In this document: one piece after another, positions 22,827 through 39,529 of the stretch | How the letters are laid out: each line of letters starts with the position of its first letter | How positions within the stretch are numbered: position 1 is the stretch's first letter | Source of the DNA: Cyanobacteriota bacterium | Lineage (GTDB): Bacteria > Cyanobacteriota > Cyanobacteriia > Cyanobacteriales > Nostocaceae | Assembly (NCBI GenBank): GCA_046045965.1 | Contig: JBJOKS010000014.1 | Coordinates: 32,001-96,000, forward strand | DNA: 64,000 nucleotides | Reading direction: 5' to 3' | Made by a program: the position numbers and the translations under genes | The notes under the pieces: model-generated | What the model was told of the DNA's origin: nothing | The model's input: the letters and a program-made list of their open reading frames with translations, nothing else | The model's database searches: none

Positions 22827-22859
22827 TTAATTATCCTATGTTATTATTAGCTTTCAATT

Positions 22860-22890
22860 TGTAGGGGTTTAGCACTGCTAAACCCCTACA
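22860..22890. repeat. REP-like palindrome
   Basis: TGTAGGGGTTTAGCA-C-TGCTAAACCCCTACA; copies at 29097-29126, 32131-32156 and 46143-46167. Confidence 0.8.
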
Positions 22891-23639: not shown

Positions 23640-26600
23640 TTAATCTTGCAAATCTCTAACAAGTTTCATTAATTTGTTATATCTCTCTACATTACCTTGA
23701 TTTAAAGATATTTCTGCTGCTTTTGTAAAATCAGCAATAGCAGCTTCGTCATTATAAAATCCCCTGTAAATCAAACCGCGATTACCATAGGCGGAATCTA
23801 GTAAAGGGTCTAGATTAATTGCATTAGTATAATTTTCAATAGCTGCATCGTATTCTTCTAAATTATGCAAGTAGACACCACGATTATAATAAGCATACGC
23901 TAGTTTTTCATTATACTCTTTTGCTAATTCAGATTTTAATTCAATTGCTTCTTTATAATCTTCTATTGCACCTTGATAATCGTTAAGTTTGTTACGCAAA
24001 AAAGCTCTTAAACCATAACCTTCTGCAAAATCATCATTGATATATTTCAGTAACATAGTTAATTTATCTATGCCTTTTTGAATATCTCCTCCATCTCTGA
24101 CATCATCTAATACGTTGTTGTATACTTGTTTCTCCAAATCAGATTGTGCTGTAAAGTAATCTAACAAAATTGTAGAAGAATCATCATGAGAGCTTGGTAA
24201 AATTTGATAGGCTTTCCACAAAGTTCGATAAGCATCATAATAAAATTCAAGTCTAGATAAAGCTTCTCCTTTCTTCCACCAAGCTTGGTAAAAATTAGGA
24301 TCTATTTCTATAACCTCATCAAAAATCTGTACTGCTTCTTCATACTTTCCATAATACAAGAGTTCTGAACATTCACTAAATAACTGTTGTGCTTTTTGCC
24401 ATGCGCCCAATACCAAATCTGAATCATCAGATATTTCACCATTTTCACGAAAGCGCAGAAAATGTATACAACCAGATTTTTCTCCAGCTAAAATTGTTAA
24501 TCCATCTGGAGAAATTGCACAGGATGTTAATTCAGTATTACCATTGAAACTAGCAACTACTTCTCCAGTTTGTAAATCCCAAACTTTGAGAGATTGATCC
24601 TCTGATACTGAAACTGCATATTTACTATTAGGTGAAATAGCTACATCATTAATATAATTTGTATGTTCAGTAAAAGTTTGTATTAATTTTACACCATTAT
24701 TTATATTCCAAACTTTGAGGGTTGTACTATCTAAACGCGAGACTATTTTTGTAGCATCAGGAGTAATAGGAACAGGATTAAAAAATGCTTGGTTTCCACT
24801 TAAAGTTAGTAGTTCTTGAGATGAACCTAAATTCCAAACTTTAATTCCATAATCTCCACTTGATACAACATTTTGATCATCAGGTGTTATGCTAATTGCT
24901 CTAATTCTCTCATATTCCTTATCTCCACTCATGATTAGTAACTCTGTTCCTGTTTGCAAATCCCAAACTTTAATAGTGTTATCTCTGGAAGCAGAAATAA
25001 TTTTCTTGCCATCAGGAGTTATAATTACATCTACAACCCAATCATCATGTCCATTAATTGTCAGTAAGTTCTGACCTGAATTTAAATCCCAAACTTTAAT
25101 TGTTTTATCCTCTGAAGCTGAAACGGCTTTTTTACCGTCAGGAGTAACAGCTAAAGCTAATACATCCTTATCATGTCTCTCTAAACTGAATAACTCTTGA
25201 CCACTGTGTAAATCAAAAACTTTAAGGGTGTTATATTTTGCAGCTGCAATAACCCGTTGACTATCAGGTGTAATTTTAAACATTTGTAATGCTGAACGCC
25301 AAGAAATTTCTACATCATTAAATGTGAATAATTCCCTACATTTATGTAAATCCCAAATTTTTAATTTAAAATGTTCTGCTGAAATAGCTTTTTTACCATC
25401 AGGACTTACTGCTATTGCGTGTACTGTACTTTGATGCCCAGGTAAAATAGGTACTGGTTTATGCTTTTGTAAATTCCAAATTTTGATTGTATTGTCTCGT
25501 GATGCTGAAATTAGATATTTACTATCAGCAGTGACAACTAAATCATTAATATCACCAGAATGACCAATCAATGTTTCTAATGATGGATGAGAACCCCAAT
25601 TACCCCAAATGTTAATAGTATTTTCATCTGAACCTGAAATTATCTTTTCTCCATCAGGAGTTACAGCAATAGCAAGCTCATCAAATGATGCTAAAGCTAG
25701 TGTACCGAAAGAATCTACAGATTGACCAGTTTGTAAATTAAAAATTTTTATATCATCACCTGAAACTAAGATAATTTCTTTGCTATCCGCGCTTATTGTT
25801 ATATCATTTATTTTGTCTTTGTAGGGCTTGATATGAATTAATTCTATGCCATTTAATAAATCCCAAACTCTCACAGTTCTATCATCTGAACCTGAGACAA
25901 TCTTGCAACCATCAGGGGTTATTGCTATAGCATTAATTTGTTCAGTATGTCCGGTCAGAGTCAGCAATTCTTCACCTGTTTCTAAATTCCAAATTTTAAT
26001 AGTCTTATCCCACGAAGCAGAAATAATTTTACTACCATCAGGAGTCACTATTACCGAGGAAACACAATCAGAATGTCCCGTTAAAGTCAGTAATTCTGTA
26101 CCTTTTTTTAAGTCCCAAACTTTAATATTATTATCCTGTGAACCAGAAACTATTTGTTTATTATTAGGAGTTACCGCTACAGACCATACTCTATCTGAAT
26201 GTCCATGTAATGTTCTAATTTCCTGTCCGGTTTGAAAGTCCCAAATTTTAATATTTTTATCCCAAGAACCAGACACTATTTGTATCCCTGCATCAGTATA
26301 AGCTAAAGCTACAGCCATTACTTCTTCAGTGTGTCCTATCAGGGTTCTTAACATTGCTCCCCCTGGTGCGGTTAAGCTGGGGGTTAGGGGATATAATTTG
26401 AGTTCTGGTTGTTGTTTTGCTTGGGTTAATAATTTTCTAATTTCTGGTGTGTCAAAATGTGGTAAACGTCCTAAAAATTGAGCCGCTAGTTGTCTAGTAT
26501 CTACTGCTAAAGCATCTGCGGATAGTCGTAGTGCATCTTGAATTAAAGTGAGACTTTCTTGTGTTTCTTCTGAAAATTCAAGTTGAGATTGTAAGGCTAA

Positions 26601-26792
26601 TTCATAATCAGCAATAAGTGATTCTACTCCTGATTCAGATACTTTGAAATCTAGAAACTCGAAATTTGTTAATAATTTTTGTAATCTTTCTCCTGCTGAT
26701 GATTTTGCTAGATAAGTTGGGATTTCTAAAAAATCTCTGCGCTTATCAATAGGCATATTTGCCAATCGTGTTTTGAAGTTACTCATCTCCAA
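23640..26792 (-). CDS. APAF-1-helical-domain-like + WD40 repeats + TPR protein (sensor half of a split STAND protein)
   Basis: N-terminal LLTNFEFL..K...LIADY...LIQDALRLS; many GH...WD/WN repeats; C-terminal AYYNRG TPRs; overlaps the upstream ATPase gene by 14 nt. Confidence 0.88.
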   Translation of the reverse strand: MEMSNFKTRLANMPIDKRRDFLEIPTYLAKSSAGERLQKLLTNFEFLDFKVSESGVESLIADYELALQSQLEFSEETQESLTLIQDALRLSADALAVDTRQLAAQFLGRLPHFDTPEIRKLLTQAKQQPELKLYPLTPSLTAPGGAMLRTLIGHTEEVMAVALAYTDAGIQIVSGSWDKNIKIWDFQTGQEIRTLHGHSDRVWSVAVTPNNKQIVSGSQDNNIKVWDLKKGTELLTLTGHSDCVSSVIVTPDGSKIISASWDKTIKIWNLETGEELLTLTGHTEQINAIAITPDGCKIVSGSDDRTVRVWDLLNGIELIHIKPYKDKINDITISADSKEIILVSGDDIKIFNLQTGQSVDSFGTLALASFDELAIAVTPDGEKIISGSDENTINIWGNWGSHPSLETLIGHSGDINDLVVTADSKYLISASRDNTIKIWNLQKHKPVPILPGHQSTVHAIAVSPDGKKAISAEHFKLKIWDLHKCRELFTFNDVEISWRSALQMFKITPDSQRVIAAAKYNTLKVFDLHSGQELFSLERHDKDVLALAVTPDGKKAVSASEDKTIKVWDLNSGQNLLTINGHDDWVVDVIITPDGKKIISASRDNTIKVWDLQTGTELLIMSGDKEYERIRAISITPDDQNVVSSGDYGIKVWNLGSSQELLTLSGNQAFFNPVPITPDATKIVSRLDSTTLKVWNINNGVKLIQTFTEHTNYINDVAISPNSKYAVSVSEDQSLKVWDLQTGEVVASFNGNTELTSCAISPDGLTILAGEKSGCIHFLRFRENGEISDDSDLVLGAWQKAQQLFSECSELLYYGKYEEAVQIFDEVIEIDPNFYQAWWKKGEALSRLEFYYDAYRTLWKAYQILPSSHDDSSTILLDYFTAQSDLEKQVYNNVLDDVRDGGDIQKGIDKLTMLLKYINDDFAEGYGLRAFLRNKLNDYQGAIEDYKEAIELKSELAKEYNEKLAYAYYNRGVYLHNLEEYDAAIENYTNAINLDPLLDSAYGNRGLIYRGFYNDEAAIADFTKAAEISLNQGNVERYNKLMKLVRDLQD

Positions 26793-28185
26793 ACATTGCC
26801 TCCCATAAATAATCTGCTTTTTGTTTGTTAATTACCTGTAATGAAACTCCTGCTTGTTTAACAATTTCTTGGTCATGCAGAAATTCGGAGAAACTACGAT
26901 GATAAATGCTATAACAAGTTCTATCTTCAATCAGACGTTTATGTAAAAATTGTAGCCATTTTTCTAAAATCTCCTGTACTGTTAATGGTGTTTCGTGAAT
27001 ATATTCAGATATTAATTCACAGGAAATAGGCTGACGGGTTTCTGCTAAATGATAAACTACATACAGTTTAATCATAGGTCTGGGTTCGTCATTCATTCCC
27101 ATGCGTACCCAATGAAATTTATAGTATTCTTGTAAACCTGTGGGTAAACCTTCAAGGTTTAAATCTTGATATTCATTTTCTTCAATATCTCTCATTACAT
27201 GAAATAAATACATGAAATTGTTTTGACTACGATTAGCAATTTCATCAATAAATTTCTCTTGTGTAACTGATTGAGATTTAATCCATTGACGTAAGGTTTC
27301 ACTATTGTTAACTCGATTGCGAACGTATGTACAAATATCCTCTCTACTTTCAGCTTGATATTCTTCGAGTAAGTTTAATATTTGTTTTGGAGAATCTGTC
27401 ATTAATCGTACATTGGCATCACGTCTAACTGTGGTAATAAAGTAAATACCTTGGGGTAAATAACGCGGTAAATACAAAATATTGGCAGTTTTATTTTGTT
27501 TAGATTGATCAACTTCATCTAAAGCATCAACAGCGATAACTACAGGGTTGCCATTGCTTTTTTTAGCTACTTCTTCTAATAATTTGCTTAGAAAAATTCC
27601 ATTATTTTTGGCTTCATCAGATAAAGAATAGGGGAGTTGATACCGTTGAATGATTTGTTGACAAATGCTTTCGAGAAATTGCTGAGGATCATTTTGTCCT
27701 TCTTGTTCAATGTTGAAATGATATATACATTCTGTATCTTGGACATATTTAGCTAAGATGGCACTTTTTCCCATTCCAGGGTCAGCAGTGATGGTGAAAT
27801 AACCATTGGGTTTACTGTTAATAAATTCAGATATGGCACTAAATACATATTCACGTCCTACAAACCCTTCCAACTTACTAGCAATTATCGCTGGTAATGG
27901 TTGAAATGGTATTTCTTTTGGTTGTTCATTTTCTGATTCTTGATTTTTCTTTCTTGCTACTGGAGTTTTATCAACTATATCTTCCCAATTTTCTATTCCT
28001 ACAGCTTTACAGAGAGCAACAAATGTTTCTTGTTCAACTCTCTCACCATGCTGAAAGCGGACTAATGTTGAATCTGAACAATTGGCATATCTGTACCATT
28101 TTATCTCTTTAGTCGTCCAGCCTTTTTTTCTTCTAGCTAAATCAACCATTTCTATTCCTTGTTGAGAAAGTCCGATTGTTGGCAT
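26779..28185 (-). CDS. HTH-like + NACHT/AAA STAND ATPase
   Basis: FVGRE, Walker A ADPGMGKS, Walker B IAVDALDE, LPTGL..YY, IYHRSF; ATG 28185 preferred over 28221 because of an upstream GGTGGAG. Confidence 0.85.
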   Translation of the reverse strand: MPTIGLSQQGIEMVDLARRKKGWTTKEIKWYRYANCSDSTLVRFQHGERVEQETFVALCKAVGIENWEDIVDKTPVARKKNQESENEQPKEIPFQPLPAIIASKLEGFVGREYVFSAISEFINSKPNGYFTITADPGMGKSAILAKYVQDTECIYHFNIEQEGQNDPQQFLESICQQIIQRYQLPYSLSDEAKNNGIFLSKLLEEVAKKSNGNPVVIAVDALDEVDQSKQNKTANILYLPRYLPQGIYFITTVRRDANVRLMTDSPKQILNLLEEYQAESREDICTYVRNRVNNSETLRQWIKSQSVTQEKFIDEIANRSQNNFMYLFHVMRDIEENEYQDLNLEGLPTGLQEYYKFHWVRMGMNDEPRPMIKLYVVYHLAETRQPISCELISEYIHETPLTVQEILEKWLQFLHKRLIEDRTCYSIYHRSFSEFLHDQEIVKQAGVSLQVINKQKADYLWEAMFGDE

Positions 28186-28403
28186 ATTTATACTCCACCT
28201 AGTGTTTTTAATTAGCGTCAATTTGGGATCAGTTTGGGATCAGTGATCCAAAACTGGGATTATTTACCCTTAATTCCTGTGTAATTCTAAAAATTGTCGA
28301 AAGCGAACGTTGGCCAACCCGCTGGAAACTCCATTCCGGGGATTTTGCAGAATCCCCAAAATCAGACCGATTGAAATACAGAGAGTTATCGGGACTTATA
28401 CGT

Positions 28404-28970
28404 ATGCCAGTAGTTAAGCCAATTGTAGCAAAGAATGAGTTGCACGCGGTACAACAGGAGGCGATCGCCAACTATATCCAGTACGCACAGTCACCACTAG
28501 AATTAGAGTTTGGGGAAAAATTGCAGACTAGAGATTTTAGGGCGATCATCTATTATTTCATATATCTCAAACACTGGACACAAGAAAGAACTGTGGGTGC
28601 GCTGACTGGGTACATGATGTTTTTATTTTTAATTTCTGTTTATCATCCCCAGTATCGTATTATTCCCATAATTGACGTAGATGAATTGTGGCATACACAC
28701 ATCTTTTTGAATACAAACAATTATGATCAAGATTGCCAAAAATTATTTGGCTATTATTTAGATCATGCCGCACATATTTCGTTAGAGGAAACAGAAGAAT
28801 ATGATTCTCAAGCGGCTTTTGCTAACACTTTGATTCTGCTAGAAAAACATTTTGGTAGTGCAGCTTTAGTAAAATTAGCTAATACTAACTCTCTACAAGC
28901 AGCCACTTCTGGTCCCGTCACAGCTATTTTCCCATCCAGTAGTTGTGGTCCGATGGTATTTAGAAATTAG
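28404..28970 (+). CDS. Glycine-rich-domain (GRDP/DUF1399-like) protein
   Basis: VDELWHTHI...Y..DC..LFGYYLDH motif; ATG 28404 preferred over TTG 28371. Confidence 0.7.
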   Translation: MPVVKPIVAKNELHAVQQEAIANYIQYAQSPLELEFGEKLQTRDFRAIIYYFIYLKHWTQERTVGALTGYMMFLFLISVYHPQYRIIPIIDVDELWHTHIFLNTNNYDQDCQKLFGYYLDHAAHISLEETEEYDSQAAFANTLILLEKHFGSAALVKLANTNSLQAATSGPVTAIFPSSSCGPMVFRN

Positions 28971-29220
28971 ATATTTTCTGATATACCTAATACACAGCAT
29001 TTCTTGTTGAGGTACACATCTAGCTGTCAAGATGCCCGCACCACAAGAGTTTTATTATTCAAGTTTGTACTTCATTTGCCCGAAATCTGCTGTAATTGTA
29101 GGAGTTTAGCATTGCTAAACCCCTACGACTGTATTAATAATTAGAGATATTGTGTTTGTGCTATTATTGAACCAAAACTAATATTATTTAAATTTGATTT
29201 AAATTTGATTTAAATTAAAT

Positions 29221-31659
29221 TTATCGTTCTAACGATTGGATAAATAATTCCATATTCTCTTTATCCACCAACATTCCCAATTTATCAAAATCCTGATAAG
29301 CTAACTCTGCAAATTTTTTAGCATCAACAAAATCATAATTAGCTTTCTTTAAATTAGCCATAGAAGCCTTACAATGAGCAATTAAAGATTTATCAAGATT
29401 CTCATCGGACATAGACAAGCATTCTGTTAATAATTTTTCAGCAGCATCTAAATTTTTATTTGCCTTAATGTACAAGTCAGCCACCCATTTCTGATTAAAA
29501 TAAATTGCACGTTTGGAATTAATATTTTCAGCTAAATTGGCGGCTTTTTGAAAACATTTCTCAGCTTTATCTAAATCATGCTGATCACCTCTTTCATAAT
29601 AAATTCTGCCTTCATAATGCCAAATCTTTAACCCTTGACGATCAATATTTTCTGGATTTATATCAACAGATTTATTCAACAGTTCCTTACTTAGCTTCAG
29701 CCATAAAGCAGCTTTGTTGTATTTCTTTTGTTTCCAATAAAAATAAACAATATTAATAGCTAGTTCAATCTCCTGTATATCGTGATATTGCCGAAGTTTC
29801 CAAGCTTTTCTAAAGTATTTTTTTGCTTTTATAAAATTCTCCATTAAAGTGAGAGTCCATGCTTGATCATGGAATAATTCAAATAAATGTGATGAGTAAT
29901 CAGGATTTTGTTCAGATGCTTCTATCAGCCAATCTGTCCATTCTAAACGGTTAAATAGAGAATTAGCACCAGATCCTTGATGATAAGCTGAAGGACGAAT
30001 ATTCCGCCAAAAAGTCAAAGATTCGAGAAATTTTTCATGCTCTTGACACCATGCAATTGCTGTTTGTAAATTATCATATTCAGCAACGAAGTAATCCATA
30101 TACTCATATTCATACCAATCTTTGTGATCCTTTTTTCTGTATCCTTGAGAAAATTCTAAATACCAATTAATCCATCTTTCTCTTGCTTGCTGCTCAAAAA
30201 CAGGATTATTTGTTAATTCAGTAGATACATAATTACGAATTAGAGGTAAAGGAATTTCGTAACGATTTTCATCATACTTAATTAACAAGCGATCTTCTAA
30301 TAATTGCAAATCCTTGTTTATTTTATCATCATCTGTTACGGTAAGTGCAACATAAGCGATCGCATCTCGCAAAGCAGGTTTAGGAAACATCACCAAAGCC
30401 ATTAATAAATCATAAGCAGAAGCAGATTCTTCCTTTAATGATTTTAATAAAAATTCCTCTTTATTTGGCAATTTACTTAAACAATTATCATGCTGCAACT
30501 GATTCAGAGCATCAATAATTAACCCCGGTATCCCACCAATAATATCTTTTATTTGTTGATATTGGTTTGGTGTAAGATTAACACTTAATTCTTGAGCTTT
30601 TTCTGTGATAAAAATTCTCGTGTCTTCTGCTGAGAGAATTTCCAGATGTAAAGGATGACCTAGCTTAGTTCTTCGACGTGATGTAATTAAGATTTTCACA
30701 TTAGAAGGCATTTGTTCAATTAGTGACTTAATATCTTGTTTATCTGCCTCAGTTTCCACATTATCTATAATTAACAGAGTATTGATGTTTTTAAATTTAG
30801 CAATAATCTTTTTTAAGAGTTGCTCTTGATTGGACTCATTAATAATTTTTTTCTTAATTTCCAAAGTAAGTGCAATGTCTTTATAAACATTCTCTAAATT
30901 AGATTCTCGACTCTCACAATGTTGCTGTTGTTTAATAGAAGTAAAAATAAAAGCATCAAACATTGGTAAATCCAAGCTGTGATTACTCTTTCTAGCTTGT
31001 AAAAAACGCAAAGCAGCTTCTTTTACTAGAGTAGTTTTACCAAAACCAGGCAAGGCAGTTATACTAATTATAGGTATATAAGGATTATCAATTAAGTTTA
31101 ATAATTTTGTAACTTCTGTTTCCCTAGCAATAAAATTATTATAATTTTTGACTAAATTACTGTAAATAATATCTTTTCTGCTTTCTGCTAATTCTTGCCA
31201 ATTTGTTAAACCTAAAACATGACAATAAGCTATAAAAGCAAGTTGATTAATGAATAAACCACGTACAAAGCTATTCCAAGTTCTATATGATATTCCCGTA
31301 AAATATATTTTCCTGTCTTCTATTAAATCTTCTATAGTTTTATAGAAAGAAATTTTGCGTTTCTGTTGATTTTGAAAAAGTTTAATCTTTATCAGATTAA
31401 AAAGTCTGGCTCTTTCTGAATTAATCTTGGTTCTATCATCCTTACTTACGTTAACTAGAGGCACAAAATAATATTCAAGTTCGTTATACCATCTTTGATC
31501 ATTTTCTCCCCAATTATTTTCCCTTGCATGTTGTGCCATTAAAAACTTGGAAGCTTCACGGAAAGGTGCATTTTCCATTGTATATTCTCTGTCTTGTCTA
31601 GCCGCTTCAACCTCTTTCCGTTTCCCTTCAAGTACCCTGAAAGTTTCCACTACAAGCAT
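29221..31659 (-). CDS. HTH-like + NB-ARC STAND ATPase + TPR protein
   Basis: FIARE, Walker A LPGFGKT, Walker B LLIIDNVE, ILITSR, GGIPG and helical repeats; ATG 31659 preferred over GTG 31689. Confidence 0.85.
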   Translation of the reverse strand: MLVVETFRVLEGKRKEVEAARQDREYTMENAPFREASKFLMAQHARENNWGENDQRWYNELEYYFVPLVNVSKDDRTKINSERARLFNLIKIKLFQNQQKRKISFYKTIEDLIEDRKIYFTGISYRTWNSFVRGLFINQLAFIAYCHVLGLTNWQELAESRKDIIYSNLVKNYNNFIARETEVTKLLNLIDNPYIPIISITALPGFGKTTLVKEAALRFLQARKSNHSLDLPMFDAFIFTSIKQQQHCESRESNLENVYKDIALTLEIKKKIINESNQEQLLKKIIAKFKNINTLLIIDNVETEADKQDIKSLIEQMPSNVKILITSRRRTKLGHPLHLEILSAEDTRIFITEKAQELSVNLTPNQYQQIKDIIGGIPGLIIDALNQLQHDNCLSKLPNKEEFLLKSLKEESASAYDLLMALVMFPKPALRDAIAYVALTVTDDDKINKDLQLLEDRLLIKYDENRYEIPLPLIRNYVSTELTNNPVFEQQARERWINWYLEFSQGYRKKDHKDWYEYEYMDYFVAEYDNLQTAIAWCQEHEKFLESLTFWRNIRPSAYHQGSGANSLFNRLEWTDWLIEASEQNPDYSSHLFELFHDQAWTLTLMENFIKAKKYFRKAWKLRQYHDIQEIELAINIVYFYWKQKKYNKAALWLKLSKELLNKSVDINPENIDRQGLKIWHYEGRIYYERGDQHDLDKAEKCFQKAANLAENINSKRAIYFNQKWVADLYIKANKNLDAAEKLLTECLSMSDENLDKSLIAHCKASMANLKKANYDFVDAKKFAELAYQDFDKLGMLVDKENMELFIQSLER

Positions 31660-31680
31660 ATATAAACCCTGTTCCCTGAC

Positions 31681-31715
31681 CAAGATCACTTAGTATTCCA
31701 TTTTAACTGATCTTG
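31681..31715. promoter_or_regulatory. Putative operator, copy 1
   Basis: CAAGATCA-N19-TGATCTTG, a perfect 8-bp inverted repeat between divergent genes. Confidence 0.7.
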
Positions 31716-31781
31716 TTGGCTGCCAAGTCAATTGTGAAAATAAAAACAAGGTGTCTACATATATGTCAGGAGTTTACATTT

Positions 31782-32084
31782 ATGGCTCGTGTGGATTGGA
31801 ATGGTCCGGTTTATCACTCTAAAAACGGGCGTTACTACTGCTATGGTACTGATAGGGATGGTAATAAGCATATTTTAGATGGGGATAGTCAGCGAGATTT
31901 GCAAGTAAATTATCTTGGTGAACTATCACCAGGTGGACTTCATGATCATCACTACACAAAAAACGGTAGGTGGTACACCCAGACACGAGTTGATACTGGA
32001 CATCTATTTAATGATGGTGGAGTTGCGAGCGATGCAGGTGGATATTTAGATCATCTGTTTGATGAGCTAAAAAGGTTAGGCTAA
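31782..32084 (+). CDS. Small hypothetical protein with an internal repeat
   Basis: AGGAG upstream of ATG 31782; 100 aa; YHSKNGRYY / HYTKNGRWY. Confidence 0.7.
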   Translation: MARVDWNGPVYHSKNGRYYCYGTDRDGNKHILDGDSQRDLQVNYLGELSPGGLHDHHYTKNGRWYTQTRVDTGHLFNDGGVASDAGGYLDHLFDELKRLG

Positions 32085-32193
32085 CTCTCAACTGATTATA
32101 TACCGAGGATGTATCTATAAAACTAACCTAGTAGGGGTTTAGCATTGCTAAACCCTCTAATCTTGAACAAAAATTATTTTACAGGTCAAGGAA

Positions 32194-32733
32194 ATGCACA
32201 TAGCAACCTCCCAGCGAAAATACATCTTTTTCTGTCTCTTCTGCATTAGTTCCTCACTCGTTATTAGTGGGTGTGCTAATACATCAATTGCCAAGCCTAT
32301 TTCCGAAAGTGATCCTCTATTAACACAGAGGTCTTTAGCTCTTGTATTAACGATTATATTGGGATTTATACAACTTGGAATTTTATTGATTAAAAACCCC
32401 CAAGCTCCACAAGTTGGAGAGGCTTGGTTTCAGCAAAATATACCCTCAGTCATTGCAATTCCATTAATATGGTCAAAACTGGGTGAATGGGGTTATATGA
32501 TTTCCAATTGGTTATTCAACCTATGGAATCCTTTGGTGTTGATATTGGGATTTTTTAATGGTGTACTTGGAAATGTAGGACTAGCTCTATCTTGGATTGT
32601 ATTATTTGGGTTTGTTTTCCCTTCACCAGATTTATTCGCTTGGGCAGTTTTACCAACATTAGCAGGTTTAATTGTCAACTTATTTTTACTAGCTTTTGCA
32701 AAAACTGGTAATAATGCAGGAGGTAATTCATAA
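32194..32733 (+). CDS. Hypothetical membrane protein, possible lipoprotein
   Basis: LVISGC lipobox-like signal followed by several hydrophobic segments. Confidence 0.65.
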   Translation: MHIATSQRKYIFFCLFCISSSLVISGCANTSIAKPISESDPLLTQRSLALVLTIILGFIQLGILLIKNPQAPQVGEAWFQQNIPSVIAIPLIWSKLGEWGYMISNWLFNLWNPLVLILGFFNGVLGNVGLALSWIVLFGFVFPSPDLFAWAVLPTLAGLIVNLFLLAFAKTGNNAGGNS

Positions 32734-32870
32734 ATACCTTGCATAGCAGAAATATAGTCAGGTTGGGTTAAGCAACAGCACAACCCAACTACAACTACAA
32801 CTTTGATTATTTTAGGGTTACTTGCTATAAGAAATAGCAATTATTCAATAGAGCAGTTTTTATAATTTGT

Positions 32871-32905
32871 CAAGATCACCAGTAACTAGCGCATAGGTGA
32901 TCGGA
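32871..32905. promoter_or_regulatory. Putative operator, copy 2
   Basis: CAAGATCA-N19-TGATCGGA, 66 nt upstream of ORF 32972. Confidence 0.65.
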
Positions 32906-32971
32906 TTTTCTATATACAGAATTTGTGCAACGTGCCAAAATTATTACAACAATGAACCTTGAAAACAAAAT

Positions 32972-34051
32972 ATGACTTTGAACTTTGATAAAAAGCGTGA
33001 AGAAGGTTTCACAGAAGTATTGTTAGCACCTGTTAAAGCAATAATAGGTGATCCTAAAGAACTCTACGGTGAATATTACGTTACCGACGAGATCAAACAG
33101 TCTGCTAAAATTACAAATTCTGCAATTGTAATTAGTAACAATATTGACGGAATCAGTCTAATACCACTGCTGCAATTTTCTTTTTCTGATTGGGGCGATT
33201 ACAGTCTACCAGCAGCTATTTTTCTAGCTGCACTGATTACATATTTTGCCAATATCACTGGAACTGCTACAGCTAAACGCAAACCAGGTAATATTATTTG
33301 GTCAATGTCTGCTACTGCTGGTTTTCTAGCAATGAACGCACTCATGACTATGACTACACCAGTTGCTCCTGAACTCACTTTAAATCAACACGGACTAGCA
33401 GAAATGCGAGCTAAAGAATTAATTGAAATTAAGGAACAAGAAGTCAAGGAGAAGATTAAACCCAGTGCTGAAGGATTAGTAAAATTAAACCAAGTTGAAA
33501 CCGAATGTAAACGTTTAGAAAATGAACTAAAAAAATACCCCAGAGGCAGTGTACAGCGTAATGATTTTTATATTAATGCCTATGGAGAATACAGCAAAGT
33601 TCGTAGTAATTATAACTGGAGTGCTGTTCCAGAAGGTAAAAGACCTGTATGTGCAAATGCCAAAATTTTAAATCAAGAAATTCGGGAATCAGCTATACAA
33701 GCACAAGAAATTTGGGCGCGTCAAAAGCAAAAAATTCTTCTTTCTGCTAGTTATGTAGTTGGTATTCGCAATACCTTACCTGAGCTTTATGAACAGGAGT
33801 TTAACGAAAAAGGAGAAGTAAATTCAGGAATAGTAAAAGCACGTTTAGCGATTGAAAGTACATATACTAAATTAGGACAAGGAGAGTGGACAAACTTAGG
33901 ATTTAGTATTTTTTGTTTTGCTTTATCTATCCTTACTTCCATCTTTTCTTGTGCTATGGCAATATCCCACTCTATGAGAAAAGATGTACAGATGAGTTTT
34001 GATGAATCTTTACCTATTGCTCTGGAAGAGTTTTGTCAAAACGACTACTAA
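32972..34051 (+). CDS. Hypothetical membrane protein with a coiled-coil-rich loop
   Basis: 359 aa; hydrophobic segments near both ends flank a charged helical region with two Cys. Confidence 0.7.
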   Translation: MTLNFDKKREEGFTEVLLAPVKAIIGDPKELYGEYYVTDEIKQSAKITNSAIVISNNIDGISLIPLLQFSFSDWGDYSLPAAIFLAALITYFANITGTATAKRKPGNIIWSMSATAGFLAMNALMTMTTPVAPELTLNQHGLAEMRAKELIEIKEQEVKEKIKPSAEGLVKLNQVETECKRLENELKKYPRGSVQRNDFYINAYGEYSKVRSNYNWSAVPEGKRPVCANAKILNQEIRESAIQAQEIWARQKQKILLSASYVVGIRNTLPELYEQEFNEKGEVNSGIVKARLAIESTYTKLGQGEWTNLGFSIFCFALSILTSIFSCAMAISHSMRKDVQMSFDESLPIALEEFCQNDY

Positions 34052-34169
34052 AATTACTCGGCTAATATTTAGCATTTATCGGGGAATCACGCCTGTAGAT
34101 AAAATCACATAGGCTGATTTTTTAACACTTAATTCAATTTTTTCTTTTTTTAGTTCAAGGGTAATCTAT

Positions 34170-34868
34170 ATGCGTGAAATGAATCCACAACGCCGGAATA
34201 ATGTTGCTAATTTATACCCCGTTAATTATAAAGGTTATATTAGGATAGACGTTCTCAAGCTTTATTTGCAAACTGGTGAATGTAATGATCCTCGACTCAA
34301 GGGAATATTACTCCGACTACATCAAGGGGAAACTTTACTTTCACCAAAAAAAGCAGAAGATTTGCTGAAAAAATTGTCTACAAGTTTAAAGTTGATTAAT
34401 ATAGTAACATCAGAATTACTAGGAGAATCTATCCCGCAAGTAGAAGCACTAGGACAACTACAATGTGAAAATGAAAGCTTTTGCTTGGAGGTTGAGACAA
34501 AAATTAGAGAAAATTTGCAAGAATTAGATTTCTTTCTTAATCAATTGTTGGAAATTAACAAAAAGTATGGATATTTAGCTTATGATACTCAACCAAAAAA
34601 ACATCCTCAGAATTTAGAAACATTTCAAGAGAACTTAGATGAATCTAAAGAATTAGTGAAAACAATTTCTTATATTCAGCGTTATCTCAATTATCAATTT
34701 AATACAACTCAATCATTATTTGACCGCACTGCTTACCCTTTAGCCTATTTTCTAAGGATTCGCAAATATTTGGAGATATTACCAGGAGAATGTCGGAGTT
34801 TAGCAGCTATAACTCGTCAAGCTATAGCAAACCGTGTTCCAGGAACTGAATCTGATAATTTAACTTGA
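34170..34868 (+). CDS. Hypothetical helical protein
   Basis: 232-aa ORF overlapping the next gene by 4 nt. Confidence 0.6.
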   Translation: MREMNPQRRNNVANLYPVNYKGYIRIDVLKLYLQTGECNDPRLKGILLRLHQGETLLSPKKAEDLLKKLSTSLKLINIVTSELLGESIPQVEALGQLQCENESFCLEVETKIRENLQELDFFLNQLLEINKKYGYLAYDTQPKKHPQNLETFQENLDESKELVKTISYIQRYLNYQFNTTQSLFDRTAYPLAYFLRIRKYLEILPGECRSLAAITRQAIANRVPGTESDNLT

Positions 34869-35530
34869 AGGAATTTAACTATATGTTTAGAGGGTTAAGA
34901 AAACAATTAAATCGCCCTAGTAGAAAAAATTTTGCAGTAAATACAAGTTTACACACATCAATCACAACTCTTACAGATGACCAATTTAAACAGCAGTTCA
35001 ACAATGGTAAGAGAAACTTTTCCGGTTGTGATTTTCGTCAGGTTAGAAATCATACTTTAAGAGAAGTTTCACTTCATGAAGCTAATTTGAATCAGGCTAT
35101 TTTTAGTGGAATGCAACTGAATAAAATTAATTTTGAAAATGCTAGTCTTTATCAAGCAAAATTTGTAGGTGCTAACCTAGCAGGAGCGAATTTAATTAGA
35201 GCAAATTTGAGTGAAGCTGACTTATCTAATGCTAACTTGGCAGATGCTTATCTAATTAATGCCAATTTATCAGAAGGTTGTTTGTATAAAGCGCAACTTC
35301 ATTGTGCTAACTTAATGGGTGCAAATTTGAGTTATGCTAACTTAAATTCTTGTAGTTTAACCTGGGCAGATTTGAGTGCAACTACTCTATGTTGGGCTGA
35401 TTTACGCAACACTAATTTAAGTGATGCTGACCTTTATGGTGCAGATTTACAACACGCTGATTATGGTTTTACAACTATTATCAAATCACGGATTCAAGGT
35501 TTAATCACTCTCAATAAGAAAACCAGATGA
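34865..35530 (+). CDS. Pentapeptide repeat protein
   Basis: G.RNFSG start and A(N/D)LxxA repeats. Confidence 0.88.
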   Translation: MKEFNYMFRGLRKQLNRPSRKNFAVNTSLHTSITTLTDDQFKQQFNNGKRNFSGCDFRQVRNHTLREVSLHEANLNQAIFSGMQLNKINFENASLYQAKFVGANLAGANLIRANLSEADLSNANLADAYLINANLSEGCLYKAQLHCANLMGANLSYANLNSCSLTWADLSATTLCWADLRNTNLSDADLYGADLQHADYGFTTIIKSRIQGLITLNKKTR

Positions 35531-35609
35531 CAAAATAATCTAGCAATTCTCAAACCTTGGAGAAGTAGAGATGTTGTATACAATATCTCTGCTCCATCAA
35601 CAGATATTT

Positions 35610-36953
35610 TTATTTTATAAACAACCGTCTTCTTTCCTGAATCAACACTTTAAATAATGCCACTATTCCATAAATACCTAAATTCCTAATCAATCTCAAC
35701 CACTCAAATAAATTAGCTGATTTCTTCCTATGTATTCTCACTAAATGCACACCAGCATCCGCAGCAGTATTTATGTATTTTTTCATTTTAGCTATTTTTA
35801 ACAATTTTAAAAATTCATGAATCGCATTATCCCAATCTCCTAAATATTCATAAATTCTCGCTCTATTTGCTAATACATTAGCTAACTTCTTTTCATTAAA
35901 ATCTATTTGGAGAAAAAGCTTTTCCGCTTTATCTAAATAAGTATATGCTGCTGAAAAATCAGGATTTTTGCATTTCATAGCAACAGCACCAGCTAACAAA
36001 TAAATAGTCCCTTCTGATTCAGGATATGCAGCTTGAGTAAATCCACTGGTTGTTTCTTTGGTTTCTGTAAATTTAGTAATTGCTGTTTCTAATAACCTGC
36101 GGGATTCATCAAAATTACCTTTTTTATATTCCAACCAACCCAAACCATAAAAAATCAAAGATAAAAAATATAAATTACCCGTACTTTCAGAAACTTCTTT
36201 ACCTTCAATAAAAGTTAATTCTGCTTTAGCTAAATCATTGACGTTCAAATAAGCAACACCTAAACTATACAAAACCCTACCTAAATCAAAAATATTACCA
36301 AGCTTCCGTAAAATATCAGCAGCTTCTAAATAACTAGATATAGCTTTTTTACTTTGATCAAATCTATCATAGCAACTCCCTAAATTCAGCAAAGTATTTG
36401 CTTGCTGATAAAGATTATTTTGTTGTTGAAATAAATCTAATGCTTGTTGTAAATGCCATTCTGCTTCTTGAGATTTTTGTGAACGTTGTAGAGTAATACC
36501 TGCACCTAAATGGTTAAAAGCTAAAAATTCCTGATTATCAAATACACGACTAGCTAAAATTCCTTGTTCATGATATTTCAACGATTCTGTAAATTGACCT
36601 TTTTCTTCTAAATAACGTCCTAAAGCACAAAATAACCATGAACCATCTTTATCCACACCTTTAGCAATTTCTTGTTGTACCCAATTTCCCCAATCTCGAT
36701 AATCTTGACTAACTTCACAATAGTAAAATAAGGCTTGACAAAATTTACGCTGGTTAATATTATTAACATCATCAATCATATTATCAAACACAGCACGAAA
36801 ATCTTGAATAACTTGGTTGATATCAATATTTGCTGAACTGTGATTACCAAACAGAAGTTGATTATATTGATAAGCTTGAGTTACCCAGTGATCTGATAAT
36901 TCATCGTCAGACGACTTGAAAAAAGCACGCACATCAAAAAGATTATTACTCAT
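35610..36953 (-). CDS. TPR protein (sensor half of a split STAND protein)
   Basis: Repeated A.TL.NLG.CY and GRVLYSLGVAY TPRs; 8-nt overlap with the upstream NB-ARC gene. Confidence 0.85.
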   Translation of the reverse strand: MSNNLFDVRAFFKSSDDELSDHWVTQAYQYNQLLFGNHSSANIDINQVIQDFRAVFDNMIDDVNNINQRKFCQALFYYCEVSQDYRDWGNWVQQEIAKGVDKDGSWLFCALGRYLEEKGQFTESLKYHEQGILASRVFDNQEFLAFNHLGAGITLQRSQKSQEAEWHLQQALDLFQQQNNLYQQANTLLNLGSCYDRFDQSKKAISSYLEAADILRKLGNIFDLGRVLYSLGVAYLNVNDLAKAELTFIEGKEVSESTGNLYFLSLIFYGLGWLEYKKGNFDESRRLLETAITKFTETKETTSGFTQAAYPESEGTIYLLAGAVAMKCKNPDFSAAYTYLDKAEKLFLQIDFNEKKLANVLANRARIYEYLGDWDNAIHEFLKLLKIAKMKKYINTAADAGVHLVRIHRKKSANLFEWLRLIRNLGIYGIVALFKVLIQERRRLFIK

Positions 36954-38292
36954 ATTGTTCCCTCAAAGTTTCTCCAAAATAACGAGCGGTAAAAGAGTGT
37001 AAAGAAACTTGTTTATTAGAACCAATAGGAGTAATTTCAATCAACGAAAGCTGATATAACTTTCTAATTGATTCATCAACAACTTGACTAGATAAACCTC
37101 CTAAGCCATATAATATACGAATAGGTACTGGTCTAGACCTCGTAGCTAAATACAGCAGCAACTTTTGAGTATTAATTGCATTTTCTTGTTGTAATTCTTG
37201 CCAGTTATCTTCAAACAAATAATTATATAATTGTTGTTCTTCTGATAAATTTTGCAACCGTTGAATAATTCTATCTATATCTAATTTACCAGCTTGACTG
37301 ACCACTAATTTCATCGCTAGTGGCATACCATCAGTAATTTTAACCAGTTCATCAATTTCTCCTGGCGTGGCTTTGAGAATCGGATTTTGACTAGGTAGTA
37401 AATATTTTTCTTCAGAAATGACTTGAATAAATTCTCTTGATACCTTTTGATTTAATTTAGATAATGCCAATTCTGTAACATCAGCATCTATTCTTCGACG
37501 ACTGGTGATAATTAAAGAACTTTTTCCTAAAATACTTTGTAATTCTGCTGCTAAGACTCTAGGACTTTCGGCATCTTCTAAACCATCAATAACTATTAAC
37601 CAAGGATGTGAATTAAGAATTCTAGTAATTTCTATTCTGAGTAAATCTGGTTGTAACAAGATATGATTTGGTAATTGTAGCTCTTTACCTATTTCTTGTA
37701 AAGCATCCTCAAATGATAAACGATAAGCCCGATGAGATGCTAATTCTCCTAAACCTTCTGATTGATATTGATATATTTTTGCCCTTACCCAAGCAATTTT
37801 TGTAAATATTTTTTTATGATAAGCTTGAGATACTAACTGATGACAAAAAGCAGTTTTTCCTAATCCTCCAATACCCGTAATACTAAATATTGTAGATTGG
37901 TTTTTTGATTCTAATACCTGAAGAATCTCTTGTAAATCATCACTACGTCCAATAAATTGTTGATATTTTTTCTCTAGTTGCCAAGTTAATAAATTTGATG
38001 TGTGTTCTGTGTCTTCATCATCATTTTCTACTTCTAACATTGCTAAGGGATCAGTATCAACAATATCCTCCCAATTTTCAATCCCTACAGCTTTACAGAT
38101 ACCAATAAAAGCATCTCTATTTACTGCTTTCCCTCTTCGGAAACGCCCTAATGTTGGTTCAGAAACATTAATACCAGCAATATCACTAGCAATATCACAC
38201 CATGAAAGTGATCTTGCTGTCCAGCCCTTCTTTTTTCTCTCTATTTCAACTTTTTCTAAACCTTCTTGAGATGCTTTGAGAGTAACTGCCAT
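36946..38292 (-). CDS. HTH-like + NB-ARC STAND ATPase
   Basis: FIGR, Walker A GIGGLGKT, Walker B LIVIDGLE, IITSR, GMPLA and SLH. Confidence 0.88.
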   Translation of the reverse strand: MAVTLKASQEGLEKVEIERKKKGWTARSLSWCDIASDIAGINVSEPTLGRFRRGKAVNRDAFIGICKAVGIENWEDIVDTDPLAMLEVENDDEDTEHTSNLLTWQLEKKYQQFIGRSDDLQEILQVLESKNQSTIFSITGIGGLGKTAFCHQLVSQAYHKKIFTKIAWVRAKIYQYQSEGLGELASHRAYRLSFEDALQEIGKELQLPNHILLQPDLLRIEITRILNSHPWLIVIDGLEDAESPRVLAAELQSILGKSSLIITSRRRIDADVTELALSKLNQKVSREFIQVISEEKYLLPSQNPILKATPGEIDELVKITDGMPLAMKLVVSQAGKLDIDRIIQRLQNLSEEQQLYNYLFEDNWQELQQENAINTQKLLLYLATRSRPVPIRILYGLGGLSSQVVDESIRKLYQLSLIEITPIGSNKQVSLHSFTARYFGETLREQYE

Positions 38293-38349
38293 ATTGATCC
38301 TAGTATTTTTATGTAATTTCAGAAATGGATACTACTTCTCATTCTTTGT

Positions 38350-38384
38350 CAAGATCACAAACAATCCTATTTTAGCTGATCGTG
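38350..38384. promoter_or_regulatory. Putative operator, copy 3
   Basis: CAAGATCA-N19-TGATCGTG between the divergent NB-ARC and PEP-CTERM genes. Confidence 0.7.
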
Positions 38385-38572: not shown

Positions 38573-39529
38573 ATGAAAAAGTCAACATTTTTAACTTACG
38601 GTTCTAGCCTAGTAATAGCTACAAGTTTAGCATTCACGAGTGGACAAATAGCGGCAGCAGGACAGAATATCAATGGTTGGAATAAGTCAATAGACTCCAA
38701 CAATGATAGTTTGTCTAGAACTCCTGGAACTGACATATTTGAAATGTATGTGATGGGAACAAAAGAAGATGAACAATTTTTCTATGTAGCAATTAATGGC
38801 AACTTACCTGTCACAGGTTTAGATACTGGAAATCAAGTATGCAATACAAGCACTGGGCAATGTTTTAATGTTAGTAACCAAAACATTGGTTATGGTGATT
38901 TATTCCTAGATTTTTCTGGTCAAAATAACTTTCTCAATGCTAGTAATTCTCGTAGTTTAATAGGTGTGAGATTTGCTCCTAATAACGATTCTAAAGTTTC
39001 TGGTACAGGTATTTTTGATTATGTAAAAGCTACAGATGTGGAAAGAGAAAACGCTGGTTATTGGAACTTCGGAACTCACAATCAAATTGTTACTCAACAA
39101 GGTGGTACTGCATCATTAGGAGATTTAGCTTGGGATGATCCTTATTATGCACCATATAATGGTTCTTTTACCTCAAATCCTATCCCTAATGTAATTGAAT
39201 CAGGTAATAAAATAGGTGATATTACCATGTTAAATAGTGCAGAATTAGCTGCTGCCGGATTTGATTTAAGTTCTTTATCTCAAATAGGTTCAGAAACTTT
39301 TGGTTTCAAGTTTTCCAAATCTCTGTTACCTATTGGTAAATATCTTGCTACTTTGATTTTGGAATGTAATAATGATGCGATCGCACTCCGAGGAGAAACA
39401 ACTAAAATAACTGTACAACCTCCACAAGAAGTACCTGAACCTTCTACTATTTTTGGAATCATGACAACAGCGTTAATTTTTGCAGCAACCAAATTTGGTA
39501 AACTCCGTAAATTTGAATTGAGTAAATAG
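38573..39529 (+). CDS. PEP-CTERM exosortase-sorted surface protein
   Basis: Signal peptide; C-terminal VPEPST, hydrophobic helix and basic tail; AGGAG upstream. Confidence 0.88.
   Translation: MKKSTFLTYGSSLVIATSLAFTSGQIAAAGQNINGWNKSIDSNNDSLSRTPGTDIFEMYVMGTKEDEQFFYVAINGNLPVTGLDTGNQVCNTSTGQCFNVSNQNIGYGDLFLDFSGQNNFLNASNSRSLIGVRFAPNNDSKVSGTGIFDYVKATDVERENAGYWNFGTHNQIVTQQGGTASLGDLAWDDPYYAPYNGSFTSNPIPNVIESGNKIGDITMLNSAELAAAGFDLSSLSQIGSETFGFKFSKSLLPIGKYLATLILECNNDAIALRGETTKITVQPPQEVPEPSTIFGIMTTALIFAATKFGKLRKFELSK

Follow-up and report, generated by a model that had tools for sequence, protein, structure and literature searches.

GutR, a protein of about 830 aa with an N-terminal helix-turn-helix (HTH) domain followed by NTPase and TPR parts, is encoded divergently from its target and has a 29-bp imperfect inverted-repeat site, and MalT carries a C-terminal DNA-binding domain of the LuxR type. 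Filamentous cyanobacteria encode many NB-ARC or NACHT proteins with TPR or WD40 repeats, which are usually discussed as immune or cell-death receptors and whose output is not known. In published accounts, GutR of Bacillus subtilis, the glucitol operon activator, is described as a STAND activator switched by inducer plus ATP, and AfsR of Streptomyces (SARP-NOD-TPR) as binding two 11-bp direct repeats over a poor −35 and a suboptimal −10 (both PMC10936776); inducer-driven multimerization of MalT is described as permitting cooperative binding to several boxes (PMC4381067), and STAND proteins with TPR or WD40 sensors as enriched in multicellular cyanobacteria (PMC7159879, PMC8195603). Here, we analyzed 64,000 nucleotides (the window) of a Nostocaceae genome (GCA_046045965.1, contig JBJOKS010000014.1, positions 32,001 to 96,000), in which a spaced palindrome occurs at three intergenic positions of an island of HTH-STAND genes. 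The original prediction had proposed that the palindromes are an operator for the HTH-STAND proteins. Comparative evidence argues strongly for an operator, mainly one of protein C: homologous genes are preceded, at a fixed distance, by cassettes that differ between clades. Binding by the island proteins would be in keeping with it. We consider it probable that the three palindromes are copies of a cassette specific to one HTH-STAND clade, likely bound by protein C, and that they form a small island regulon.

Three palindromes of one geometry

All three palindromes proved to be present, each with GATCA and TGATC cores around a 19-nucleotide spacer (N19):

31678..31715, minus strand: site 1, GATCA-N19-TGATC-TTGGTC in the minus-strand reading; core 31684-31712
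32868..32905, minus strand: site 2, GATCA-N19-TGATC-TTGACA; core 32874-32902
38347..38384, minus strand: site 3, GATCA-N19-TGATC-TTGACA; core 38353-38381

Site 1 lies between the gene for protein C and a divergent 100-aa open reading frame (ORF) and is common to both. Site 2 lies ahead of a gene for a 359-aa protein and has no regulator gene on its TTGACA side, which makes it an orphan cassette, and site 3 separates the gene for the HTH-NB-ARC protein A from a PEP-CTERM gene. Each site is asymmetric, the minus-strand arm reading TGATC-TTGACA at sites 2 and 3 and TGATC-TTGGTC at site 1. Sites 2 and 3 share a perfect 11-bp arm and have kept the exact spacing while their spacers diverged. The description of the spacers as unrelated fails for sites 1 and 3, where ATTTTA, read as TAAAAT on the minus strand, occupies an identical register; site 2 lacks it.

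The extended pattern AAGATCA-N19-TGATC had 4 strand-matches in the window (the 3 sites) compared with 0.01 expected from shuffles, and the genome-wide scan that had been proposed as a check found it only at these three sites in the whole 5.29-Mb genome. Observed word counts give an expectation of 0.76 genome-wide and 0.002 per 16-kb island, all these expectations being for a pattern chosen after the sites were seen. The bare core GATCA-N19-TGATC matched 8 times in the genome and other spacer lengths gave 1-20 matches, which is background level, indicating that the signal resides in the clustering and the extended arm. Across 60 relatives, the extended pattern had 15 strand-matches versus 20 for a reversed control. 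With three sites in the genome and a background level in relatives, the motif is local, and we rejected both a global regulator site and a dispersed HIP1-like repeat. An 11-mer scan across 401 genomes used a word too short to be informative. A structured RNA element of an Rfam family was likewise rejected, as none of 14 loci, among them the site 3 region (L020), had a match at gathering score.

HTH-STAND proteins and their upstream arrays

The island encodes three STAND proteins with related N-terminal domains, and two of them are accompanied by separate repeat proteins:

29221..31659, minus strand: protein C, 812 aa, Cro/XRE-like HTH with a long insert, NB-ARC and TPR (Pfam and alignment)
36946..38292, minus strand: protein A, 448 aa, HTH-NB-ARC with no sensor domain, of another HTH clade (Pfam, fold model)
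35610..36953, minus strand: TPR protein, overlapping the stop of A
26779..28185, minus strand: protein B, 468 aa, HTH-NACHT-like, followed by a WD40-TPR gene (23640-26792)
28227..28249, no strand assigned: half-site array of B, GATCA twice 11 bp apart and then TGATCC, a related but different cassette

The N-terminal domains of A, B, and C are homologous and are the only three members of their family in the genome. Pfam placed NB-ARC above cut-off in C and A but missed the HTH of C; P-loop and Walker B motifs are present in both sequences, for A also by alignment. Residues 1-85 of A had as nearest Atlas clusters HTH cro/C1 (0.90) and HTH_3 (0.86), and the N-terminal domain of A was modelled as compact and helical with predicted local distance difference test (pLDDT) values of 78-94. 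The N-terminus of C aligned with this HTH at an hhalign probability of 99.9 over the whole alignment, so that the HTH of C is the same domain with a long insert, its fold resting on the alignment to A. In fold searches, the NTPase part of A (residues 99-448) matched NRC2/NRC, MalT, and Apaf-1, and the A model superposed on MalT 8bob with a Z of 16.3 and a root-mean-square deviation of 4.3 over 295 aligned residues. A PDB sequence search with the alignment of C returned designed TPR proteins only. The preferred start of C is the ATG at 31659; an upstream GTG falls inside site 1. Repeat sensors are found within C (TPR), in the gene adjacent to A (TPR) and in the WD40-TPR gene next to B. The TPR protein at 35610..36953 is likely the separate sensor of A, and the same gene pairing occurs at L051. 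As predicted from sequence and models, the island proteins have several traits of STAND transcription regulators of the MalT/GutR/AfsR type: a STAND NTPase (C and A), a fused predicted HTH, a repeat sensor within the protein or in an adjacent gene, and, on comparative evidence, a conserved operator of several half-sites beside target promoters. We also considered an Avs-type anti-phage STAND system and rejected it: the N-terminus is an HTH, and PADLOC had no match for A or C and only STAND_TPR, with no Avs model, for B. At a homologous locus, L268:2402-4945, a C-like NB-ARC-TPR protein has a different N-terminal domain and no cassette, an architecture indicating that the DNA-binding module was swapped on the same STAND body.

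The HTH family is present in 132 of 301 genomes of the order. A first set of upstream regions comprised 30 plus 80 top matches and two named loci, leaving out 41 weaker and some 40 further matches. GGCTCA/TGAGCC, oriented inward, occurred in 46/87 non-redundant proximal upstream regions versus 6/85 in the distal set; GCTCA was most frequent between -160 and -80 and TGAGC between -80 and -20, and half-sites were directly repeated at spacings of 11, 12, and 24 bp. In one homologue, whose HTH has an insert and a TWxRF helix, the GCTCA type was replaced by GATCA…TGATC-TTGACA. A second set, collected with the insert-type HTH (30 plus 60 loci) and with the HTH of C, gave the consensus CTGATCTAAAATTGATCTTGACA in 42 of 82 loci, TTGACA starting mostly 24-29 nt (range 20-35) before the start codon. 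We then pooled 165 non-redundant loci and compared an L clade (n=84) with a W clade that includes C (n=78). L loci had GCTCA-type sites in 51/84 and TTGACA in 3/84, and W loci had GATCA-type sites and TTGACA in 38/78 each. Because the distal control is mostly coding sequence, we added the 4075 upstream regions of this genome as a control; at least two GCTC-type half-sites occurred in 17 of these, at least two GATC-type half-sites in 66, and TTGACA in 72. A regular expression for the cassette matched 18/78 W loci (C included), 1/84 L loci (A itself) and 2 of the 4075 genome regions, namely those of C and A. Inspection of the regions upstream of homologous HTH-STAND genes, which had been suggested as a check, supported the proposal: the half-site arrays found there are oriented, and each HTH clade has its own type. 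Collectively, there is a cassette of fixed geometry that is placed between regulator and divergent gene and co-occurs with an HTH clade. As a side observation, the L-clade promoters L065, L078, L033, and L041 (upstream 170 nt) have 7-9 or more tandem GGCTCA half-sites with an 8-12-bp period; such microsatellite-like arrays could tune expression by copy number.

One recognition-helix residue also varied with half-site type, Gly being found with 33 GATC-type and 0 GCTC-type operators and other residues with 10 and 47 (89 labelled rows, L217 dropped as mis-parsed). After tree correction, well-supported branches gave just 1 independent pair and all branches together 5, and the link was not significant, and the residues at this position are Arg in C, Pro in A, and Ser in B. 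Accordingly, a residue-level recognition code was set aside as suggestive and not phylogenetically independent, and we claim only a link at the level of clades.

Operators of the Pap/agn43 type are sensitive to Dam methylation, and it had been speculated that binding here could also sense methylation. The genome encodes two full-length Dam-family methylases, so the sites are probably methylated. However, GATC is kept at the matching half-site in only 19/42 loci (variants: TGATC 14, CGATC 5, TGACC 7, TGAGC 4, 12 others); as GATC is exchangeable at the half-site, methylation sensing is unsupported despite the methylases.

Starting from the motif, a scan of 260 other genomes gave 18 matches in 10 of them, compared with 3 for the reversed control. 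Seven lay directly before a family HTH and 5 were orphan cassettes with extra half-sites. Judged by likeness to scanned proteins, the genes behind the orphans encode DUF4347-like proteins (two), further proteins that are probably extracellular (two), and a paralogue of a target with a TPM domain; in orthologous orphan pairs, the core arms were kept and the spacers changed. L242 has its own cassette and a second copy before the next gene, like site 2. A metagenome scan yielded 24 loci, 3 of them with a family HTH.

The sites sit in a block of lower GC content (0.31-0.38) flanked by a CBS gene and a NUDIX gene. This block is absent from three congeners. In one of these (L296/L304, G001:C34:278080-280245), the CBS and NUDIX genes are about 1 kb apart and the sole remnant between them is a 430-bp piece of the TPR gene, which suggests that the island was once present there and then deleted. 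Such losses, together with the shuffling of regulators and targets among loci and the retention of only two half-sites per site, would also be expected if sites 2 and 3 were relics of module shuffling after loss of W-clade regulator genes, now unbound or unselected. We think this quite unlikely: the two sites have kept a perfect arm and exact spacing around divergent spacers, and orphan cassettes elsewhere are conserved between genomes. Site-specific recombinases use inverted arms, and with module shuffling evident the inverted repeats could themselves be the recombination sites that shuffle regulator and target modules. This would be most improbable, since none of the 12 island proteins scanned belongs to a recombinase family, the spacers differ, the site type tracks the HTH clade, and contigs from four read runs had no rearranged junction at the sites.

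Protein C, predicted promoter anatomy, and candidate targets

The assignment to protein C draws on the geometry of its subclade. Within the W clade, C falls in a subclade with a long insert. Protein search found nine such loci, and in six of them (L243, L266, L306, L308, L309, and L310) GATC[AG] precedes TTGACA by exactly 24 nt, the geometry of the window; of the rest, L242 has a spacing of 22, and L311 and L312 have no cassette. Two further long-insert loci found through the motif, L244 and L246, also have N19, and short-insert W loci favour N20 (8/14). The tail of site 1 starts 24 nt before the ATG of C, within the range of the clade. With matrices trained solely on other genomes, the window excluded, site 2 (26.5) and site 3 (25.7) ranked first and second in the genome by matrix 1, the next score being 23.7; by matrix 2, site 3 ranked first and site 2 second (scores 24.0 and 21.0), followed by 18.4. 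Two observations on long-insert regulators stand beside these results. In four genomes (L314, L315, L316, and L319), the regulator is divergent from the same 154-172-aa gene, followed in three of the four by an AAA-type gene of about 810-835 aa, a conserved module. A 53-55-aa CxxC...CxxC zinc-finger ORF lies on the divergent side of C-like genes at two unrelated loci (L243:2262-2429 and L268:185-346), the one in L243 having a weak Anti-TRAP match.

On the regulator side of the family promoters, the half-sites are directly adjoined by a −10-like [TC]A[ATG]AAT (26 of 78 loci at offset −6 and 30 at +5), and TAAAAT lies near them in 20/42 loci. Two spacers in the window contain this hexamer:

31700..31705, minus strand: TAAAAT in the site 1 spacer, predicted −10 of C
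38369..38374, minus strand: TAAAAT in the site 3 spacer, predicted −10 of A and the TPR gene

On the target side, a NANNNT hexamer is most frequent at a distance of 25-29 nt from the outer half-site, with 24 and 26 of 101 at offsets 27 and 28 and mostly 3-11, up to 15, at other offsets. Site 1 fits this divergent peak with GAAAAT at 28. TTGACA is the consensus −35 and, in W loci, is better kept than the adjoining pentamer, as it would be if the common sequence were mainly a sigma-70 promoter signature that needs no regulator. That explanation is very unlikely in our judgement. TAnnnT follows TTGACA at 17 nt in only 5/42 loci, and in five long-insert loci no more than 10-17 nt separate TTGACA from the ATG, so that a −10 would have to fall within the coding region; the inverted GATCA arm and the clade-specific base change would moreover be left unexplained. 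On these sequences, TTGACA is unlikely to serve as the −35 of the regulator. At L243, both arms extend to TTG(A/G)CA, suggesting that the tail is part of a protein footprint.

Several points weigh against an operator bound by C. No clear array precedes 73/162 family loci, several of which look like tandem or mobile insertions. Six of the 18 motif-first matches look like background, and 5 of the 7 that precede an HTH come from genomes that shaped the pattern, L244 and L246 alone being new. A second cassette like that of L242 was not found in the other 7 of 8 wider neighbourhoods with a long-insert regulator. Sites 2 and 3 lie off the divergent −10 peak, their nearest candidates being at 30 and 23; site 1, with its degenerate tail TTGGTC, was outside the top 25 and top 15 matrix rows; and, whereas a canonical cassette has up to four half-sites, the window copies keep only two. 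Finally, GATC-type half-sites also lie near A and B, which are sister HTHs within the L clade (tree support 86); cross-binding is therefore possible, and site 3 could be bound by A. Each site might then be read by its adjacent regulator, A at site 3 and C at site 1 with site 2 shared, or all three regulators might overlap. An A-like gene in L268 is preceded by a TGATCC array resembling that of B, and an A orthologue in L050 and P0003 both have Gly at the GATC-associated helix position. We nevertheless find this division of sites unlikely because the TTGACA tail and the 24-nt geometry belong to the clade of C, and a different layout, two TGATCC at 11 bp without TTGACA, is seen in the array of B and in that of the A-like gene at L268.

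The genes predicted to respond to C, and others around them, are as follows:

31782..32084, plus strand: 100-aa ORF, no family match; predicted target of site 1
32194..32733, plus strand: 179-aa hydrophobic ORF, no family match
32972..34051, plus strand: 359-aa protein, PDLC01074 (E 1.1e-61), that is, C3a124; predicted target of site 2
34170..35530, plus strand: 232-aa ORF and pentapeptide-repeat gene, downstream of the 359-aa gene
38573..39529, plus strand: XDD3-family PEP-CTERM surface protein, NF041930 (184 bits, cut-off 80); predicted target of site 3
28371..28970, plus strand: GRDP-like gene, PF07173, divergent from B

For protein C as regulator of all three sites, we infer binding, its direction of effect, and the action of an inducer as follows. 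At rest, C would be an ADP-bound monomer. An inducer at its TPR sensor would open the NB-ARC domain, C would multimerize as MalT does, and several HTH domains would then engage the TGATC half-sites on both arms. As the arm facing the plus-strand genes lies at about the −35 position, binding would activate their weak promoters, those of the 100-aa ORF, the C3a124-like operon, and the PEP-CTERM gene; as the palindrome encloses the minus-strand −10, it would repress C at site 1 and the pair of A and its TPR gene at site 3. Site 2, which has no minus-strand −10, would be a pure trans target, and through site 3 C would also control a second STAND regulator, A. Site 1 is thus likely the divergent control region of C itself, and sites 2 and 3 are likely trans targets. 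In the family at large, the proteins likely bind the cassette, switch on neighbours, many of them surface or secreted proteins, and damp their own expression. The idea that the long spacer suits a large oligomer would fit by analogy with MalT and with the 11-12-bp half-site repeats.

The 179-aa ORF is possibly co-transcribed with the 100-aa ORF. The 359-aa protein places a member of C3a124, which PMC6546367 lists as a type III-B CRISPR accessory family with function not known, within a STAND island. In two RNA runs, contigs of low depth covered C, A, the PEP-CTERM gene, or the 100-aa ORF; strand and start were unreadable and DNA carry-over uncontrolled, and the runs were set aside. Across the family, a crude ORF rule called a divergent ORF at 75/87 loci with an operator and 47/75 without one. 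Sixty divergent ORFs were scanned; the families matched included DUF4347 (4) and CHAP, RTX repeats, TPM, trypsin, lactonase-like propellers, and ComFB (2 each), and also lipase, peroxidase, GST, and GRDP, with 29 having no Pfam match. GRDP-like genes are the divergent partner in L051, L120, and L268 as they are in the window, and they recur beside regulators in L242 and L314 as well; several end in short tails containing C-x-P.

Further observations concern the surroundings of these genes. A short palindrome, GTTGGCCAAC or GTTAGCGCTAAC, lies in what is predicted to be the 5' leader of the divergent gene at 11/165 loci versus 4 distal (window 28304-28325, L021, L024, L029, L030, L051, L053, L167, L168, L188, and L212). 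It lies mostly 116-132 nt from the far end of the 330-nt upstream window, had no Rfam match in the 14 loci scanned, and is possibly a 5'-stabilizing hairpin. Near a C-type gene, L317:13369-13872 contains two small ORFs with repeated CNPPLCNG-like motifs that resemble peptide precursors. A 31-bp palindromic repeat has three intergenic copies in the window (22859-22889, 29096-29126, and 32129-32159); related copies are dispersed in congeners, marking it as an ordinary REP-like element unrelated to the motif.

Relation to known STAND regulators

Our literature search returned no description of this HTH family or operator, most subscription journals and supplements lying outside its coverage; the accessible parts of four accounts (PMC7159879, PMC8195603, PMC11119718, and bioRxiv 10.64898/2026.01.04.697583) discuss cyanobacterial STANDs without this family or operator. 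A defined operator would give the HTH-STAND family a direct readout and would add a third DNA-binding architecture to the few characterized bacterial STAND transcription factors. Regulons can be predicted from the cassette in the many genomes with members of the family (132 of the 301 sampled), and a reporter built on it would allow screens for inducers such as phage, grazers, metabolites, or envelope stress. A wider reading, possible but doubtful, is of a large, mobile, NLR-like family of one-component transcription factors with a readable code, in which helix Gly versus Ala or other residues would go with GATC versus GCTC, opposed arrays would mean activation of the divergent gene and autorepression, and orphan cassettes would define regulons of surface, secreted, and defence-linked genes, one receptor in the island controlling a second and a gene of a CRISPR-accessory family. 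If true, bacterial NLR sensing would have a transcriptional, non-suicidal output and its regulons would be predictable from sequence.

Anti-phage STANDs and bacterial NLRs (Avs, bNACHT) and EAD-linked conflict systems resemble the family in joining a STAND module to a TPR or WD40 sensor. In Avs and bNACHT, however, the N-terminus is an enzymatic effector, whereas here it is a predicted DNA-binding HTH with a conserved operator. GutR offers a site of matching length, the core in the window being 29 bp like the GutR site, and the C homologue P0050 carries the automatic JGI label 'LuxR family glucitol operon transcriptional activator'. The HTH here is instead a cyanobacterial, Cro/XRE-like domain with clade-specific inserts, and the targets are not sugar catabolism genes; no glucitol genes were found among the island proteins scanned. 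Escherichia coli MalT shares the STAND NOD fold, as seen with the A model and 8bob, and its multi-box binding matches the half-site arrays; the DNA-binding domain differs in being N-terminal and Cro/XRE-like here, with sensing assigned to TPR or WD40 repeats or to a separate gene. AfsR has the same order of an N-terminal DNA-binding domain, NOD, and TPR, and in the family here, too, a weak −10-like hexamer follows direct repeats of 11-12 bp at a distance of about 25-29 nt. By contrast, AfsR uses a SARP (ODB-BTA) domain rather than a Cro/XRE HTH and has direct repeats only, whereas opposed arrays serve a divergent pair here. The palindromes thus represent a genuine, family-specific cassette, probably the operator of STAND transcription regulators from cyanobacteria that form an apparently undescribed group and would work in the manner of MalT, GutR, and AfsR.

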